From IMG/VR virus record IMGVR_UViG_3300005613_000015, positions 1 through 64,000 of that record: a stretch of 64,000 bases of DNA. The stretch is one strand, 5' to 3'. The position numbers were made by a program, and so were the translations under genes. Positions 1-4,280 of the stretch are shown in pieces. Below the pieces are notes generated by a model. That model was not told where the DNA came from and searched no databases. It saw only the letters and a program-made list of their open reading frames with translations. Within the stretch, counting starts at the first letter, position 1. Every line of letters starts with the position of its first letter. This stretch comes from a virus.

Positions 1-4
1 CTTT

Positions 5-175
5 CTAAAACTCTCCTAGTTGTTTTCCAATCTTCCAAATCAGGTCTTGGATTCGGTCGTCGAGGAGCAGCCCCCAGCTGCGACGGCGCTCAAGAGTGTC
101 CCGAATCTCTTTCAGTTCCTCGAAAGCATACCGAAGTAGCTCAAGCGATTCTTCTAGTTCTTCTCGTTCATTCAT
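5..175 (-). CDS. Small early hypothetical protein (56 aa, MNEREELEES...)
   Basis: ATG at 175 overlaps the end of the upstream 52-aa ORF; charged, helical composition. Confidence 0.65.
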   Translation of the reverse strand: MNEREELEESLELLRYAFEELKEIRDTLERRRSWGLLLDDRIQDLIWKIGKQLGEF

Positions 176-326
176 CGTTATTCCTTTGCTCCTCAAAATA
201 AGCCGCTTTTTGTTCATCGGTCATCCAATAAACGACTTCCCCCTCATCATCGAGTCCACACTCGATTTTGCCTTCAGAAACAAGCATCCAGAGAGTTTTT
301 TCCAGTTCTTCGTTGATGTCTTCCAT
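168..326 (-). CDS. Small acidic early protein (52 aa, MEDINEELEKTLWMLVSEGKIECGLDDEGEVVYWMTD...), not in ORF track
   Basis: Hand-translated; ATG lies 1 nt after the HAD gene stop; fills the gap between neighbours. Confidence 0.7.
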   Translation of the reverse strand: MEDINEELEKTLWMLVSEGKIECGLDDEGEVVYWMTDEQKAAYFEEQRNNDE

Positions 327-327
327 G

Positions 328-777
328 TTAGTTGAATCGGGTGCGGGTTTCGTCGTAAAGGAACACGCCGCAGTCTACGGCGGCTTCAAGGTTAGGCTCT
401 TCGTTATCGAAGAAGTAAGTGCGGAACTTGAGAGAAAGCTCTCGAAGAAGCTCTGCTTTGTAGGCGGAGACTTCCAACCCCTTATCTCCCACACAGTAAA
501 CTTGCTGAGCGGTTACACCGTATTGAGAGAGAAGGCTCATAATCGTCTGAGCAACAATCGACTGGCGAGCGGTCAGAATGTAGACTTCGTGACCCTCATT
601 AGCGACCGTGCGAGCGAAATCGAGAAGAGGAAGCGGCTTGCTCTCAAGAGCGAGCTTTTCGCAATCGTTGAACTCGATAAAGGCATCAAGCCCTTCCGCC
701 TCTTCGTGAATCACGGCAGAGGTTTCAAAGAGGGTTCCGTCAAGGTCGAACACGAATGCTTTAGCTTCTTCTTTCAT
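328..777 (-). CDS. HAD-superfamily phosphatase (149 aa)
   Basis: Motif I FDLDGT, motif II ILTAR, Lys, motif IV FFDN; start reassigned to ATG 777, 7 nt after TATAAT. Confidence 0.85.
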   Translation of the reverse strand: MKEEAKAFVFDLDGTLFETSAVIHEEAEGLDAFIEFNDCEKLALESKPLPLLDFARTVANEGHEVYILTARQSIVAQTIMSLLSQYGVTAQQVYCVGDKGLEVSAYKAELLRELSLKFRTYFFDNEEPNLEAAVDCGVFLYDETRTRFN

Positions 778-813
778 GTGGGTCATTATACCAGACTCAG
801 GCGGTCTGGTCAA
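778..813 (-). promoter_or_regulatory. Early sigma70-type leaderless promoter (TTGACC-17-TATAAT-7-ATG)
   Basis: -35 at 808-813, extended -10 TGGTATAAT, -10 at 785-790. Confidence 0.85.
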
Positions 814-985
814 GAGATTTTTGGAGATTCTGGCGAATTTTCCGCCGAACATAGCGGGAGTCCTTCGGCTTCGCCTTGCGCGGGGACACGCGCCACAGGT
901 TGCAGCAGGTGCAGCCGAAGCCACCGATACCGTGACGGGTGCGGAGTGCCTTGTCGTTCGTAAGGTCGAATCCGTTGTTCTTCAT
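797..985 (-). CDS. Small basic Cys-containing early protein (62 aa, MKNNGFDL...CTCC...)
   Basis: ATG 985 lies 6 nt after TATAAT; Arg/Lys-rich C-terminus. Confidence 0.75.
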   Translation of the reverse strand: MKNNGFDLTNDKALRTRHGIGGFGCTCCNLWRVSPRKAKPKDSRYVRRKIRQNLQKSLDQTA

Positions 986-1019
986 GCGTGTATTATACCA
1001 CACTATCAGGGGATTGCAA
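986..1019 (-). promoter_or_regulatory. Early leaderless promoter, class A (TTGCAA-16-TATAAT-6-ATG)
   Basis: -35 at 1014-1019, -10 at 992-997. Confidence 0.85.
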
Positions 1020-1118
1020 GCCTTTCGAGGAGGAAATACAAAAGTTTTTTTGCGTGACCTCCTAAGTCCTTGCTATGCATGGGTTTACGACGGGACGGAG
1101 GCCCCCGCCAAAGGGGGT
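1014..1118. repeat. About 100-bp dispersed repeat upstream of class A promoter, copy 1
   Basis: Aligns with 1733-1835 and 2692-2786; contains A/T tract, 25-bp TAA-N19-TTA element (1063-1087) and GC hairpin (1101-1118). Confidence 0.9.
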
Positions 1119-1151
1119 GTAGACCCTCAAACTCGGGCGCTATTGGCCGAT

Positions 1152-1424
1152 TCAGTTCCAGTCGTCGTAGCTGTAGGAGTCGTCATCTCCCCAGCCAGCC
1201 GAGGTGAAAGCGGACTCGTCATCCCCATCGTTGCAATCGGGTTCTTGCGAGAAGGACACGCCCTTGTCGCAGGTGCAGGCGACTTTATCGCCGTAGTCGT
1301 CGTAATCGTACCCCGTATCGTTGCAGCGGTTGCACTCGAAAGGGGTCCAGTTCTGGGAAGCCTCGAAGGTTTCGAGGTAACGGAAATCGCCTTCGTACTG
1401 GCTAAAAGTGTTGTCGTTCATCAT
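1152..1424 (-). CDS. Highly acidic small early protein with CxxC/CxC (90 aa)
   Basis: ATG 1424 lies 6 nt after TATAAT; Asp/Tyr-rich. Confidence 0.8.
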   Translation of the reverse strand: MMNDNTFSQYEGDFRYLETFEASQNWTPFECNRCNDTGYDYDDYGDKVACTCDKGVSFSQEPDCNDGDDESAFTSAGWGDDDSYSYDDWN

Positions 1425-1459
1425 GCGTGTATTATACCAGAGGTTAGTGAGGTTGTCCA
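1425..1459 (-). promoter_or_regulatory. Early leaderless promoter, class B (TGGACA-17-TATAAT-6-ATG)
   Basis: -35 at 1454-1459, -10 at 1431-1436. Confidence 0.85.
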
Positions 1460-1461
1460 GT

Positions 1462-1704
1462 CTATTCTTCGGAATCTTCCGAAAAAATATCATCCTGGCA
1501 GGACTGGCACATCCCCGAAATCTTGTATTCGGCCAGGGAGAGCGCATCGCGCCAGTAGCCACCATCGCCAGGGTAGGCGTCATGGGCAGGGATGCCCTCT
1601 TGGTCACAGGTGACGCACCATCCCCGCTCGATGCACTCGACACGGTTGGAGCCAGTAAGGTTGAAGGAGACGTCGAGCACGGGCGCTTTGTCGGTTGCTT
1701 TCAT
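1462..1704 (-). CDS. Small putative Zn-binding early protein (80 aa; CVTC...CQSC)
   Basis: Two CxxC pairs; ATG 1704 lies 6 nt after TATAAT. Confidence 0.8.
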   Translation of the reverse strand: MKATDKAPVLDVSFNLTGSNRVECIERGWCVTCDQEGIPAHDAYPGDGGYWRDALSLAEYKISGMCQSCQDDIFSEDSEE

Positions 1705-1738
1705 GGGTGTATTATACCACATCCTCGCAGGATTGCAA
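1705..1738 (-). promoter_or_regulatory. Early leaderless promoter, class A (TTGCAA-16-TATAAT-6-ATG)
   Basis: -35 at 1733-1738, -10 at 1711-1716. Confidence 0.85.
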
Positions 1739-1835
1739 GCCTTTCGAGGAGGAAATAAAAAGTTTTTTTGCTTGACCTTGTAAGTTCTTGCTATTCATGG
1801 GTTTACGGCGAGCGGGTGGCCCCCCGCAAGGGGGC
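1733..1835. repeat. About 100-bp dispersed repeat upstream of class A promoter, copy 2
   Basis: 25-bp element at 1781-1805; CCCCC-GCAA-GGGGG hairpin at 1821-1834. Confidence 0.9.
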
Positions 1836-1838
1836 GCG

Positions 1839-2033
1839 TCAAGCAGAAAACCCCAATTCTTGAAGGTCTTTTTCAATTTCTTCGGCGCAAGGCTTACAGC
1901 AGTCCGTGTAGCCGTTACGGGCTTTCTCGGTCACGGAAAGGTTTTGTTCGCACACTTGGCAGGTGAACCACGTTTGCGCGAGCTTGGTTTGGTCTGCCAG
2001 CCACTCGGAGTAGTGTAGGTCGTTGTAACTCAT
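1839..2033 (-). CDS. Small putative Zn-finger protein (64 aa; CQVC...CCKPC)
   Basis: TAATG-coupled to the upstream gene; Cys pairs. Confidence 0.75.
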   Translation of the reverse strand: MSYNDLHYSEWLADQTKLAQTWFTCQVCEQNLSVTEKARNGYTDCCKPCAEEIEKDLQELGFSA

Positions 2034-2305
2034 TATTCGTTAGAGGTATCCTCTTGCCGTTGAAGAATAGGGTGAAGTCGGTTAGAATACTCCAACTTAC
2101 CATAGTAGTAGTCGTAGTTATTCATAACTCGGATTCGAGCATCCGTAAGCGTACGAACGTCTTGAATGTTCAGGTAGATTCGATTAGGACCCATCGAGGG
2201 GATGGACACCTGATAAGCTCGCTCGCGGTCTTTGCGTTCCGCGATGACGATTTCGCCTACCATGTAAATGCTTTCGAGAGGAGCGGTATTCATGTCGTTT
2301 TTCAT
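2033..2305 (-). CDS. Early hypothetical protein (90 aa, MKNDMNTAPL...)
   Basis: ATG 2305 lies 6 nt after TATAAT. Confidence 0.75.
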   Translation of the reverse strand: MKNDMNTAPLESIYMVGEIVIAERKDRERAYQVSIPSMGPNRIYLNIQDVRTLTDARIRVMNNYDYYYGKLEYSNRLHPILQRQEDTSNE

Positions 2306-2340
2306 GCGTGTATTATACCAGATGGGAGAGGGTTTGTCCA
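2306..2340 (-). promoter_or_regulatory. Early leaderless promoter, class B (TGGACA-17-TATAAT-6-ATG)
   Basis: -35 at 2335-2340, -10 at 2312-2317. Confidence 0.85.
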
Positions 2341-2357
2341 GAGGAAACTTGAGAAAG

Positions 2358-2528
2358 TTAGAGGATGGGACGCTCTTCGACCTCAACCTCAGCGTTAGGC
2401 CATTCAGCCATAAGCTCAGCCTGACGGACAAGCGCGGTCGCCTTAGCGGCGTGGAGACTGTCCAGAACCTCCTCAGAGGAGCTAAGGGAGATGAGGACGA
2501 CGAACACGGTGAGAGGGGTGTCTTTCAT
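2358..2528 (-). CDS. Small early protein (56 aa, MKDTPLTVFVVLISLSSSEEVLDSLHAAKATALVRQAELMAEWPNAEVEVEERPIL), not in ORF track
   Basis: Hand-translated; fills the space between two promoters. Confidence 0.75.
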   Translation of the reverse strand: MKDTPLTVFVVLISLSSSEEVLDSLHAAKATALVRQAELMAEWPNAEVEVEERPIL

Positions 2529-2563
2529 GGGTGTATTATACCAGAGGGAAGAGGGTTTGTCCA
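2529..2563 (-). promoter_or_regulatory. Early leaderless promoter, class B (TGGACA-17-TATAAT-6-ATG)
   Basis: -35 at 2558-2563, -10 at 2535-2540. Confidence 0.85.
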
Positions 2564-2570
2564 GAGAAAA

Positions 2571-2663
2571 CTACAGAAAAGCTGCGAGTTGGTACAGAAA
2601 CAGAATCGCCAAGCCAAGACCGATGAGTTCGAGGACTTCGAGGAGGAGCTTCGTTTTCTTCAT
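2571..2663 (-). CDS. 30-aa membrane peptide (MKKTKLLLEVLELIGLGLAILFLYQLAAFL), not in ORF track
   Basis: Own promoter 6 nt upstream; basic N-terminus followed by a hydrophobic helix. Confidence 0.7.
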   Translation of the reverse strand: MKKTKLLLEVLELIGLGLAILFLYQLAAFL

Positions 2664-2697
2664 GTGTGTATTATACCACACTTCCGAGAGAATGCAA
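2664..2697 (-). promoter_or_regulatory. Early leaderless promoter, class A (TTGCAT-16-TATAAT-6-ATG)
   Basis: -35 at 2692-2697, -10 at 2670-2675. Confidence 0.85.
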
Positions 2698-2786
2698 GCC
2701 TTTCAAGGAGGAAATAAAAAAGTTTTTTTGCATGACCTTGTAAGTTCTTGCTATTCATAGGTTTACGGCTCGCCGGGGGCCGCCGT
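2692..2786. repeat. About 100-bp dispersed repeat upstream of class A promoter, copy 3
   Basis: 25-bp element at 2741-2765; nearly identical to copy 2 over about 70 bp. Confidence 0.9.
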
Positions 2787-2808
2787 CAAGAAAATTTTGG
2801 ATTTTTTT

Positions 2809-2901
2809 CTAGCGGTCTTGCTCGCCTTGTGAGGCGGCTACGCACAAGGACCAAGCGACGAACGCTAGGCCAGCGCAGATGATTCCGAGAGCAACTAGCA
2901 T
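2809..2901 (-). CDS. 30-aa membrane peptide (MLVALGIICAGLAFVAWSLCVAASQGEQDR), not in ORF track
   Basis: ATG overlaps the upstream stop (ATGCTAG); hydrophobic helix. Confidence 0.55.
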   Translation of the reverse strand: MLVALGIICAGLAFVAWSLCVAASQGEQDR

Positions 2902-3122
2902 CCTGCGTAGGCGCTCTGCGTAGCTCGCCAGGGCTTCATCAGGCTACCGTTGTGGTTGCCGTAGTGCTTGCCGCACTTCATGCGAGGAAGCGACTGGCGA
3001 AGGCTGATGTAATGCTCCAGCAGAGCCAGGACGAGCTTGTTCTCGCTCGGAAGCGCCTTGTAGGTGAGGGCGAAGAGGGAACCGATGAGGTGAGAGTAGA
3101 CGTTGATGATGTCGTTTTTCAT
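2895..3122 (-). CDS. Early hypothetical protein (75 aa, MKNDIINVYSH...)
   Basis: ATG 3122 lies 6 nt after TATAAT. Confidence 0.7.
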   Translation of the reverse strand: MKNDIINVYSHLIGSLFALTYKALPSENKLVLALLEHYISLRQSLPRMKCGKHYGNHNGSLMKPWRATQSAYAGC

Positions 3123-3157
3123 GTGTGTATTATACCACGGGTTAGAGAGTTTGTCCA
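3123..3157 (-). promoter_or_regulatory. Early leaderless promoter, class B (TGGACA-17-TATAAT-6-ATG)
   Basis: -35 at 3152-3157, -10 at 3129-3134. Confidence 0.85.
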
Positions 3158-3175
3158 GAGGAAACTTGGATTTTT

Positions 3176-3322
3176 TCAAAAAGAGGGGAGCATCCGAATA
3201 AGCTCCGCAGCGCGCAGCGCAATCGTAGCGCATACCGTCAGGGCGAGAGCGAGGACATCCGAGAACATAACCGTAAGAACGCCCAACAAGACCCATTTGA
3301 TGATTTTTCCGTTTTTCTTCAT
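3176..3322 (-). CDS. 48-aa membrane peptide (MKKNGKIIKWVLLGVLTVMFSDVLALALTVCATIALRAAELIRMLPSF), not in ORF track
   Basis: Own promoter; basic N-terminus followed by a long hydrophobic stretch. Confidence 0.7.
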   Translation of the reverse strand: MKKNGKIIKWVLLGVLTVMFSDVLALALTVCATIALRAAELIRMLPSF

Positions 3323-3356
3323 GCGTACATTATACCACGTTCTTATAGGATTGCAA
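3323..3356 (-). promoter_or_regulatory. Early leaderless promoter, class A (TTGCAA-16-TATAAT-6-ATG); first of the array
   Basis: -35 at 3351-3356, -10 at 3329-3334; diverged 25-bp TAA-N19-TTACG element at 3383-3407. Confidence 0.85.
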
Positions 3357-3487
3357 GCACTTTTTGAAGAAATATGTCCTCCTAACCCCCTGGGGGGTAG
3401 GCACTTACGTCACCGGAGAATTTCGCGTTTTTTGGTACCATAGACGCAGCGGTTTGCGTATTACTTCCCGAAGGTTCATCTTTGTAA

Positions 3488-3653
3488 GGGACTCCTAAAA
3501 ACAAACAAACTCTAAAATAAAAAAATAACTCATGGGACTCCTAAATAACTACATGGAATCTTCAGTAAAAGAGCTACTAGCTGAAAAAGCTAAAGGCAAA
3601 AAATGCGAAGAAGATGAAAAAGTCTTCGCACTGCCGGGAGTGGGACTGCTAAA
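3488..3653 (+). repeat. Three direct repeats GGGACT(C/G)CTAAA
   Basis: 3488-3499, 3534-3545, 3642-3653; the last two run into CTAAATA late-promoter-like motifs. Confidence 0.75.
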
Positions 3654-3684
3654 TAATATGAGGTTTTATTTATGTCAGATATAG
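3553..3684 (+). CDS. Possible 43-aa protein (MESSVKELLAEKAKGKK...)
   Basis: ATG 5 nt after CTAAATA; N-terminus loosely resembles that of the 4918 protein. Confidence 0.35.
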   Translation: MESSVKELLAEKAKGKKCEEDEKVFALPGVGLLNNMRFYLCQI

Positions 3685-4280
3685 GAAGAATATGGGATGG
3701 TTATTGCACACTAACCGTTCAAGCAATTATAAGCATTTATGAGAAAGAGATACCGGGCAATCCTGGAAGCCCTCCAGCTAAAACATGGAGAGTAAACATT
3801 AGGCTCATAGCTATAACAAGATGCGAAGAAAAAGAAGGCTGGAAAGGTAGTCGGGTTAGAATGGCGAATGAGGTGACAGACAAGACCGCGCAGGCGACTA
3901 TAGCGAAGCGTACAATATGCTCGATGTGCGATACCTCTTGTGGAGAGGAGACTATAGGAGTGTGGAACCTAAGTGATAAGGGAAGCGGCAATCTTCCAGC
4001 AAGATTTCGTAGGCTAAGAAATTCTTTAAACGGACAGTGTTTTGAGGAGGGCGGCGAGCCTTTAGGAAGTGAAAGTTTACGGAATAGAATTGGTCCCGAT
4101 AACCGCAGAGGAGAGGATGTTATTCAAGATATAGGTGGTGCGCTTGAAGAACTTATGGGAGATGCGACTATAGCGAGTGTAATACCTGACTGTGATTCTA
4201 GTTCTTGTGCCTGTGGTGATGAAGACCCCCCGCAAGTTTTTGGACTTGCAAACACAACATTCCCAAGCATAGTGGACTAA
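3672..4280 (+). CDS. Cys-rich hypothetical protein (202 aa)
   Basis: Long ORF downstream of CTAAATA at 3649-3655. Confidence 0.7.
   Translation: MSDIGRIWDGYCTLTVQAIISIYEKEIPGNPGSPPAKTWRVNIRLIAITRCEEKEGWKGSRVRMANEVTDKTAQATIAKRTICSMCDTSCGEETIGVWNLSDKGSGNLPARFRRLRNSLNGQCFEEGGEPLGSESLRNRIGPDNRRGEDVIQDIGGALEELMGDATIASVIPDCDSSSCACGDEDPPQVFGLANTTFPSIVD

Follow-up and report, generated by a model that had tools for sequence, protein, structure and literature searches.

A row of nine small genes at one end of a viral contig, each starting a few nucleotides downstream from the same promoter sequence, raises two questions: how such genes are translated, and whether the repeated sequence takes part in bringing them together. 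The window analyzed here (64,000 nt) covers the left 64 kb of an IMG/VR record of 101.7 kb, and the array runs off the contig end. To judge by its gene content, the record is an uncultured, deep-branching, distantly T4-like myovirus, with a core that includes a Gp23-type capsid protein, terminase, portal and sheath; it also encodes a UvsX-like recombinase and an SSB. Neither a distant DNA search with the array nor a protein search with its HAD-type phosphatase returned a cultured phage. We consider it likely that the locus is a hyperplastic early-gene array, made of leaderless promoter-gene cassettes that are shuffled through their repeats by phage recombination.

The promoter module and its cassettes

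The extended -10 word, TGGTATAAT, is found nine times on the minus strand of the array, always just 5' of an ATG (word positions 785, 992, 1431, 1711, 2312, 2535, 2670, 3129 and 3329). The 11 copies present in the window compare with 0.59 expected from shuffled sequences, none of 100 shuffles having reached 11. When the whole 101.7-kb record was searched for the word followed by 6 or 7 nt and ATG, the minus strand gave nine occurrences, each of them within the array, and the plus strand one (at 99119); a control search with the pattern reversed gave 0 occurrences. The -10 hexamer lies 6 nt from the ATG in eight of the nine modules and 7 nt in the remaining one (ATG 777). In an independent consensus scan, eight modules scored as sigma-70-type promoters, with 10-11 matches out of 12 in the hexamers, a TG and a spacer of 16 or 17 nt; in the ninth (ATG 2663) the -35, TTGCAT, is weaker. 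The linker between -10 and ATG reads ACAC(G/A/C)C in seven modules, the repeat extends into codons 2-4, and eight of the nine first-ORF proteins begin with Met-Lys. These features agree with the original prediction, which had placed nine such sites before ATGs at 6 nt (once 7 nt), each with a -35-like hexamer 16-17 nt further upstream, a linker mostly of the above form, and Met-Lys at eight of nine starts.

Two alternating forms of the module can be distinguished. In class A, the promoter is preceded by a G/C hairpin, a conserved box and an A/T tract; a class B module consists of the promoter alone, lacks the hairpin and abuts the previous stop codon. The array is made up of the following elements.

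Cassette 1, 3176..3356, minus strand: class A-like promoter with -35 TTGCAA (3351-3356) and extended -10 (3329-3337); ATG 3322; 48-aa predicted membrane protein.
Cassette 2, 2809..3157, minus strand: class B promoter with -35 TGGACA (3152-3157); ATG 3122; 75-aa ORF followed by a 30-aa ORF (2809-2901) whose ATG overlaps the stop codon of the first.
Class A upstream element, 2698..2789, minus strand: weak G/C hairpin, conserved box of ~27 nt, A/T tract just 5' of the -35; copy 3 of the 134-nt repeat D2.
Cassette 3, 2571..2697, minus strand: class A promoter with -35 TTGCAT; ATG 2663; 30-aa hydrophobic peptide.
Cassette 4, 2358..2563, minus strand: class B promoter directly after the previous stop codon; ATG 2528; 56-aa ORF.
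Cassette 5, 1839..2340, minus strand: class B promoter; ATG 2305; 90-aa ORF and a coupled 64-aa Cys-rich ORF (1839-2033, TAATG overlap).
Class A upstream element, 1739..1840, minus strand: 7-bp all-G/C hairpin, conserved box, A/T tract.
Cassette 6, 1462..1738, minus strand: class A promoter; ATG 1704; 80-aa CxxC...CxxC protein.
Cassette 7, 1152..1459, minus strand: class B promoter; ATG 1424; 90-aa acidic Cys-rich protein.
Class A upstream element, 1020..1120, minus strand: G/C hairpin, conserved box, A/T tract; counterpart 5' of position 1204 in the related locus L056.
Cassette 8, 797..1019, minus strand: class A promoter; ATG 985; 62-aa basic protein.
Cassette 9, 5..813, minus strand: promoter with -35 TTGACC and 7-nt linker; ATG 777; 149-aa HAD-type phosphatase; the contig ends here.
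Further ORFs of cassette 9, minus strand: 168-326 (coupled) and 5-175 (own Shine-Dalgarno site).

The first ORFs encode proteins of 30-149 aa that fall into nine different similarity families, in line with the earlier claim of tiny, mutually unrelated cargo. A clear family can be named for the 149-aa phosphatase only. Summed over the nine first ORFs, the frames stay open for 680 codons, which by our own estimate has a chance probability of about 1e-14. The description of these units as nine self-contained promoter-gene cassettes held in part. Every cassette has its own promoter, and there are nine modules; on the other hand, class B units have no hairpin, and some cassettes contain two or three ORFs. 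Three translationally coupled ORFs and the one with its own Shine-Dalgarno site bring the array to 13 ORFs, and since the contig starts inside the array, nine cassettes is a minimum. The cargo probably consists of host-takeover and accessory proteins, among them small membrane peptides, Cys-rich proteins and the HAD phosphatase.

The class A hairpins are 5-7 bp long, lie 60-90 nt upstream of the promoter and lack a U tract. Their fold z-scores are not significant, and a role as terminators would be no more than putative. The conserved class A box does not correspond to any known RNA, the window having given no match in an Rfam scan. In class A copies, the -35 is immediately preceded by an A7/T6-type tract; an A/T-rich patch at this place is also seen in the consensus of 196 modules and is weak in class B.

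Start of transcription and translation

In eight of the nine modules, the A of the ATG is the seventh base after the -10 hexamer. The seventh base is the modal start position of sigma-70 polymerase. From this promoter geometry, each message probably starts at its AUG and is leaderless. Several findings bear on the position of the true start. Each of the nine array ORFs begins with ATG, homologues in other loci begin at the same module ATG, and in the HAD family the DxDGT motif (motif I) starts at residue 9-12 counted from it. The latter two observations identify the module ATG as the true start; with the catalytic motif so close, no space is left for an upstream start or a ribosome-binding site. 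As had been predicted, a Shine-Dalgarno site cannot exist in the 6-7 nt that separate the -10 from the ATG.

We propose that the unit is a strong host-type sigma-70 promoter (-35, 16-17-nt spacer, extended -10 and 6-nt discriminator) fused to an ATG. Transcription would begin on the A of the start codon, and translation of the leaderless mRNA would need no Shine-Dalgarno site, the host's capacity for leaderless translation being assumed. Because the repeat covers codons 2-4, unrelated proteins share the same first residues. As the ATGs further downstream lack a ribosome-binding site, the first gene of each cassette would be expressed mainly from its own promoter.

The module is not confined to this record. 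It is repeated in arrays in about 30 of 73 fetched IMG/VR stretches, with 209 modules in all, including the -35 and the A-rich codons, which lie outside the search pattern. The 6-nt discriminator is kept in 196 of the 209, although conservation of the core across these loci is partly a matter of ascertainment, since they were fetched by the core motif. In other lineages, genomes hold from tens to more than 100 copies of the same word at this spacing from ATG, and the reversed control has almost no matches; this is the pattern expected for leaderless genes.

An alternative would be that the promoters are real while most translation takes place on read-through transcripts, or on transcripts starting a few bases upstream, by a route that is independent of Shine-Dalgarno sites (relying on S1 or on A-rich sequence) and not leaderless. 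A terminator scan of the array detected no canonical terminator between cassettes, which makes read-through likely, and the A-rich codons 2-4 would also favor Shine-Dalgarno-independent internal initiation. In addition, with a linker of 7 nt at 777 and of 5 nt at other places in the genome, +1 would not fall on the A in every case. Against this stand the retention of the discriminator in nearly all modules, though under transcription from its own promoter this conserved segment would itself stay untranscribed, the ATG at every start in the window, and the recurrence of the word at a fixed distance from ATG in other lineages. We judge this alternative rather improbable and favor leaderless initiation at the module ATG.

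The remainder of the genome offers a point of reference. The structural genes of the same phage have TAGGAG-type Shine-Dalgarno sites, while replication and recombination genes (DnaB, UvsX, dCMP deaminase) have TATAAT 5-6 nt before the ATG. A search for phage-encoded translation helpers, S21 and the C-terminal domain of IF3, found neither.

Cassette exchange and breakpoints of homology

Comparison of cassette order and content in relatives had been named beforehand as a check on gene shuffling. No fixed order was found: cassettes are permuted, replaced and laterally exchanged, all of them on one strand and always in the same orientation. Arrays adjoin the same block of glycosyltransferase-like gene, terminase and portal in 11 loci; the array region is variable between relatives and the neighboring terminase block is conserved. 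Across arrays, the cargo amounts to 47 families plus 53 singletons. In L056, terminase and portal are only 49% identical at the protein level, yet single cassettes are held in common at 94-98% DNA identity. Conversely, the closest core relative (L022, terminase 83%) shares just two diverged cassettes, in reversed order. Promoter-plus-gene units have been gained, lost, reordered and laterally exchanged among related phages.

Individual cassettes show the same mosaic. The protein of cassette 1 belongs to a family (F0) present in 9 other loci. Cassette 2 has a relative in L056 at 42% amino acid identity, and cassette 3 matches L056 (4956-5130) at 82% DNA identity. The first ORF of cassette 5 is 97% identical to its L056 counterpart in protein sequence. 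The protein of cassette 6 matches phrog_19722 and has family members (F4) in 6 other loci, all starting at the module ATG. Relatives of cassette 7 occur in L022 and L053; the cassette 8 protein is 88% identical to that of L056, with more relatives in L066, L009 and L024. The last ORF of cassette 9 is 98% identical to one in L056, where it is preceded by a leaderless module of its own. One separate idea, that the contig ends lie about 6.5 kb apart in a relative, was ruled out: a 495-aa ORF places L056 before L005 in the contig order.

Homology breaks sit inside the -10/ATG core: similarity runs through the next promoter and ends just past the ATG, as it does for cassette 4 against L056. For cassette 5 and L056, differences number 9 in 273 bases of the ORF, 0 in 15 of the core and 8 in 31 upstream of the -10 (Fisher p = 6e-5). 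Overall, 37.5% of homology-block ends fall within -45 to +15 of a module ATG, compared with 10.7% by chance (maximum 24% in 1000 trials). In this statistic related loci are included and every pair enters in both directions; the tendency of a conserved core to draw BLAST block ends may also contribute to it. This concentration of breaks and the uniform orientation agree with the shuffling part of the original prediction. PeSL (promoter-early stem-loop) crossovers in phages RB49 and phi1 were mapped between the -10 and the ATG (PMC2839356). While the flux of cassettes and the position of the breakpoints come directly from comparison of relatives, the recombination mechanism is one that we infer from the likeness to PeSL mini-circles, and by the same analogy the repeats themselves may cause the recombination. 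The repeats, 40-130 bp long, would double as homology for the phage's UvsX and SSB, so that promoter-bounded cassettes could be deleted, reinserted, reordered and passed between co-infecting phages.

Two other origins of this pattern were weighed. Modules might be alike through selection for consensus early promoters, with cassettes turning over by illegitimate recombination or in some other way that does not use the repeats as substrate. Most of the conserved positions do have a promoter function, block ends are attracted to any conserved island, and the 3' break of cassette 5 lies at the stop codon, outside any module. We nevertheless regard this as unlikely: the class B spacer, the linker, codons 2-4 and the 134-nt class A unit are shared despite having no known promoter role, identity changes by a sharp step inside the core, cassette orientation is preserved throughout, the phage encodes its own UvsX and SSB, and PeSL mini-circle crossovers have been sequenced in this very interval (PMC2839356). 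An integron-like or other site-specific system, in which the repeats would be sites of a dedicated recombinase, would account for a one-strand array of single-gene units with variable content. However, no integrase or recombinase adjoins the array in the window or in the loci whose neighbors were compared, the repeats agree with a promoter in all defining positions and lack the imperfect-palindrome structure of attC sites, and integron cassettes, which are attC-bounded, moved by an integrase and promoterless, are the opposite of units that each carry a promoter. This reading was rejected as very improbable. Recombination through the promoter repeats is the explanation that we retain.

Known systems and possible hosts

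PeSLs have been described in the T4-type phages RB49/phi1, T4/PST and KVP40/nt-1 (PMC2839356; PMC4122927). Adjacent copies recombine with each other into mini-circles, and their stem-loop, which immediately precedes the promoter, terminates transcription. The full arrangement of a PeSL is approached by class A. The array and PeSLs have in common repeated near-consensus sigma-70 early promoters before small ORFans in a hyperplastic T4-like region, an A/T tract and a GGGG/CCCC-type hairpin upstream (in the array, class A only), and indels, replacements and displacements between relatives at the repeats, with crossovers between the -10 and the ATG. They differ in that PeSLs carry a Shine-Dalgarno site and start codon at their 3' end, whereas the array modules lack the former, have the -10 6 nt from the ATG and reach codons 2-4. 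Moreover, about half of the array modules (class B) have no stem-loop, the hairpins have no U tract, and cassettes are common to phages whose terminases are about half identical. By its sequence, then, the array is a ribosome-binding-site-free variant of PeSL shuffling cassettes.

The phages in which PeSLs were defined infect Proteobacteria and have ordinary ribosome-binding sites; PeSLs are, to our knowledge, the only described mechanism of accessory-gene shuffling in T4-type phages. Their logic would here extend to a deep uncultured branch in compressed form, a unit of about 40 bp setting transcription start, translation start and recombination homology. We found no published description of such leaderless cassette arrays in the literature. 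The comparative evidence for single cassettes jumping between distant phages points to a route for the spread of anti-defense and host-takeover genes. The module may also be viewed as a natural and compact design for expression that needs no ribosome-binding site, and its motif as a searchable signature for early genes, perhaps hosts, of uncultured phages. Gene callers that need a ribosome-binding site will overlook these genes or misplace their starts.

Sevostyanova et al. reportedly found in 2007 that the middle and late transcripts of Thermus phage phiYS40 are leaderless. That phage is likewise a large myovirus transcribed by host RNA polymerase; a -10-like element adjoins the start codon, so that many of its mRNAs are leaderless. 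Its leaderless classes, however, are middle and late, with promoters devoid of a -35. The array modules are of early type, with both a full -35 and an extended -10, and in the array phage it is the late structural genes that use Shine-Dalgarno sites. We know of no cassette shuffling in phiYS40. A -10 hexamer a few bases before the start codon, with no ribosome-binding site, is also a feature of leaderless genes of Actinobacteria and of the '-10 region adjacent to ORF' expression mode of Deinococcus-Thermus (PMC12340547); there it serves scattered cellular genes, here promoter-gene units of a phage that are repeated in tandem and mobile.

More tentatively, and with considerable doubt, the module could be a portable expression platform that works across lineages, with promoter, transcription and translation start and first codons traveling with any small gene from one phage to another, even where core proteins are no more than about half identical. 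Leaderless early genes and late genes with Shine-Dalgarno sites might then constitute a translation timing switch in a host proficient in leaderless initiation, possibly a motif-rich Verrucomicrobiota lineage. The capsid protein was absent from the five motif-rich Verrucomicrobiota MAGs searched, and no close cellular relative was found for the Glf protein. An exact copy of the 20-base module is present in 39 bacterial genomes, one per genome; such genomes have many leaderless promoters, so these single matches can be due to chance. The only matches of the capsid protein are two small contigs, which belong to the bin of one Planctomycetales MAG that is not itself motif-rich (2 motif copies in the genome).

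Geometry of the promoter modules

Between positions 328 and 3410 the minus strand carries nine copies of the extended -10 word TGGTATAAT, and an ATG lies 6 nt downstream of each copy (7 nt at 777), opening an ORF of 30-149 codons. Eleven copies of the word are present in the window against 0.59 expected, a number that none of the shuffled sequences reached. When the word was combined with a 6-7 nt linker and an ATG, scanning of the 101,674-bp record yielded nine minus-strand matches, all inside the array, and a single one on the plus strand; the reversed control pattern gave 0 matches in the same record. An independent generic promoter scan recovered all sites but one, each with 10-11 of the 12 hexamer positions matched, a 16-17 nt spacer and a TG; the -35 of the remaining module is weaker. 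Counts, shuffles, control and scan confirm the nine modules of the original prediction, whose linker, Met-Lys starts and unrelated cargo genes (those behind the modules) were all found as claimed.

Promoter modules of the array and the upstream box. Class A modules have an upstream hairpin, box and A/T tract in three of four copies, and class B modules have no hairpin; L056 is a distantly related IMG/VR locus.
ATGs 3322, 2663, 1704 and 985, minus strand: class A modules, -35 TTGCA(A/T)
ATGs 3122, 2528, 2305 and 1424, minus strand: class B modules, -35 TGGACA, common C/T-rich spacer
ATG 777, minus strand: unclassed module, -35 TTGACC
Window 1020-1115, 1739-1835 and 2698-2789; L056:1241-1380 and 2693-2830: region of the ~27-nt box, upstream of class A modules

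Three of the class A copies sit in a 134-nt repeat made up of a short G/C hairpin, a conserved ~27-nt box and the A/T tract. Class B modules start no more than ~20 nt from the preceding stop codon and have no hairpin. The module repeat extends into the coding sequence, class B genes opening M-K/E-N-D and class A genes M-K-K. Four cassettes contain extra ORFs, three of which either overlap the stop codon before them or are at most one base away from it, while one has its own Shine-Dalgarno (SD) site. No canonical terminators were found in a scan between the cassettes, and the class A hairpins carry no U tract. The G+C content of the array is 48-52%, versus about 38-47% for the remaining window; measured over positions 1-4000 it stands 5-10 points above the rest of the genome, and the coding strand of the array is C-rich.

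The ~27-nt box, 55-85 nt ahead of the class A start codons, contains TAGCAAG and has TAA...TTA half-sites at its flanks. It is retained in L056 despite differing surroundings and has no match in Rfam; it may bind a protein or belong to a terminator or insulator. Just upstream of cassette 1, the cassette farthest from the contig end, there are two to three copies of TAGGAGTCCC (3480-3560, minus strand), with one copy at the equivalent L056 site (about 5200). This element may be the SD site of mini-ORFs or a regulatory site heading the array.

Start codons and the leaderless layout

By sequence comparison the module ATG can be taken as the true start codon, since cargo homologues in other contigs all open at it and are of similar length, the catalytic DxDGT motif of the HAD family begins at residue 9-12, and the nine frames stay open for 680 codons altogether. 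The A of this ATG is the 7th base downstream of the -10 hexamer; sigma-70 polymerase starts most often at the 7th base past the hexamer, with a preference for purines. We infer that transcription begins on the A of the ATG. The gap of only 6 nt between TATAAT and ATG leaves no room for a ribosome-binding site.

The structural genes of the phage have TAGGAG-type SD sites. TATAAT lies 5-6 nt ahead of the ATG in the genes for DnaB, UvsX, dCMP deaminase, a nuclease and a DNA-binding protein, so that the leaderless layout extends beyond the array:
G000 (apparently the full record) 74455, 81636, 84909, 86263, 87573, 92122 and 99122, plus strand: TATAAT-ATG replication and recombination genes, upstream parts less conserved
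On this evidence, leaderless design looks like a habit of the non-late genes, of which the array would be the most stereotyped form. Ahead of several structural or late genes (window 12020, 18380, 22407 and 56060; G000 64072) stands a (C)TATAATA-type word that has no -35 and is followed by a long leader with a TAGGAG SD site; these words resemble T4-type late promoters.

Cassette exchange among related phages

IMG/VR was searched with an exact 18-base core in which one position was left free. The core was found in 73 stretches, and 31 of the fetched loci contain at least two copies. A looser scan gave 209 modules with an extended -10, whose consensus includes a -35 and A-rich codons 2 and 3, two features that the search did not specify. 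At 11 loci the array has the same neighbour a few kb away, a block running from a glycosyltransferase-like gene through terminase to portal. First ORFs across loci have a median length of 75 aa and make up 47 families and 53 singletons. Cassette order varies among contigs and orientation is constant: L026, L024 and L009 are collinear, L067 has their families in permuted order, and L014 and L008 differ again. At L067:12264-12372, where two adjacent cassettes have paralogous cargo (family F6), one module lies within the frame that starts at the module before it, as if unequal exchange between modules had recently produced a tandem duplication.

Judged by core genes, L022 is the nearest relative (terminase 83%, ribonucleotide reductase 83%, portal 78%); it has only two cassettes in common with the window, diverged (36-39% aa identity) and in reversed order. 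The core genes of L056 are far more diverged (terminase and portal 49%), but it has cassette 5 at 94% DNA identity, the last ORF at 98% and cassette 8 at 87%. Single cassettes have therefore passed, not long ago, from one phage to another far removed from it. The homology of the window with L056 begins at the -35 of cassette 3, spans the gene and the entire next promoter, and ends just past the ATG of cassette 4; beyond that point the two carry unrelated cargo. Mismatches in cassette 5 number 9/273 in the ORF, 0/15 in the core (-15 to -1) and 8/31 in the 31 nt upstream of the core (ORF versus upstream, Fisher p = 6e-5).

When internal homology-block ends were counted over 17 array loci, 37.5% of them fell between -45 and +15 relative to a module ATG, against 10.7% under random placement (maximum 24% in 1000 trials), a figure that is supportive rather than decisive because it takes in related loci and both directions of every pair, and because the conserved core alone also draws block ends. 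Recombination is the presumed mechanism. The original prediction had proposed gene shuffling, to be checked by comparing cassette order and content in relatives; permuted order, exchange and breaks at modules support that reading.

Lineage, known systems and candidate hosts

The source record, from IMG/VR, is linear and an estimated 93% complete. Since the window comprises its bases 1-64000, the array runs up to the contig end and may extend beyond it. The genome codes for a Gp23-type major capsid protein, terminase, portal, tail sheath, ribonucleotide reductase, family A polymerase, DnaB, a UvsX-like recombinase and SSB, and has four tRNA genes reading A/U-ending codons. The best matches in cultured phages are only 31% (capsid protein) and 35% (terminase) identical. 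The phage represents a deep T4-like lineage without a cultured member.

PeSLs, the promoter-early stem-loop elements of T4-type phages, consist of an A/T-rich region, a stem-loop, a sigma-70 early promoter, an SD site and a start codon (PMC4122927). They sit in hyperplastic regions, where they give rise to indels and mini-circles, and the crossovers that have been mapped fall between -10 and ATG (PMC4122927; PMC2839356). Like PeSLs, the modules have a promoter, an A/T tract, a comparable location and rearrangement at the elements; unlike PeSLs, they lack an SD site. The short class A hairpins would be the candidate counterparts of the stem-loop terminator. Judged by these features, the modules appear to work like PeSLs yet form a distinct, leaderless variant. 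No description of leaderless PeSL-type arrays was found in the literature searched. Leaderless genes are known in Thermus phage phiYS40 and in actinobacteriophages. Genes with a -10 adjacent to the ORF occur in Deinococcus-Thermus (PMC12340547).

Two leads, to Verrucomicrobiota and Planctomycetales, name candidate hosts, neither being evidence of infection. The first lead comes from bacterial MAGs that were picked up through containing the exact module: three of them, two with the label Verrucomicrobia and one with the label Kiritimatiellae, have 48-143 copies of TGN-TATAAT-N6-7-ATG versus 0-1 of the reversed control; about 60% of the copies have TGG, and CGC or CAC is a frequent linker ending, as it is in the phage. 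The motif is likewise abundant in a Saccharibacteria MAG, which, however, favours other bases at the N of TGN. Sampling limited the trait to a minority of genomes in the phylum Verrucomicrobiota and class Kiritimatiellae. Among these, G001, G002, G003, G059, G119, G132 and G142 (some labelled Kiritimatiellae), reached via loci L082, L091 and L097 and by sampling, hold 18-84 copies of TGGTATAAT-N6-7-ATG (reversed control, 0-1), and for the majority of sampled genomes in this phylum and class the count is 0-2. Such richness suggests that leaderless genes are a habit of particular lineages. In conflict with the Verrucomicrobiota lead, two small contigs (L115 and L116) whose capsid proteins are 68% and 57% identical to that of the phage are binned in one Planctomycetales MAG, itself not motif-rich; these contigs could be phage fragments binned in error, or could hint at the host.
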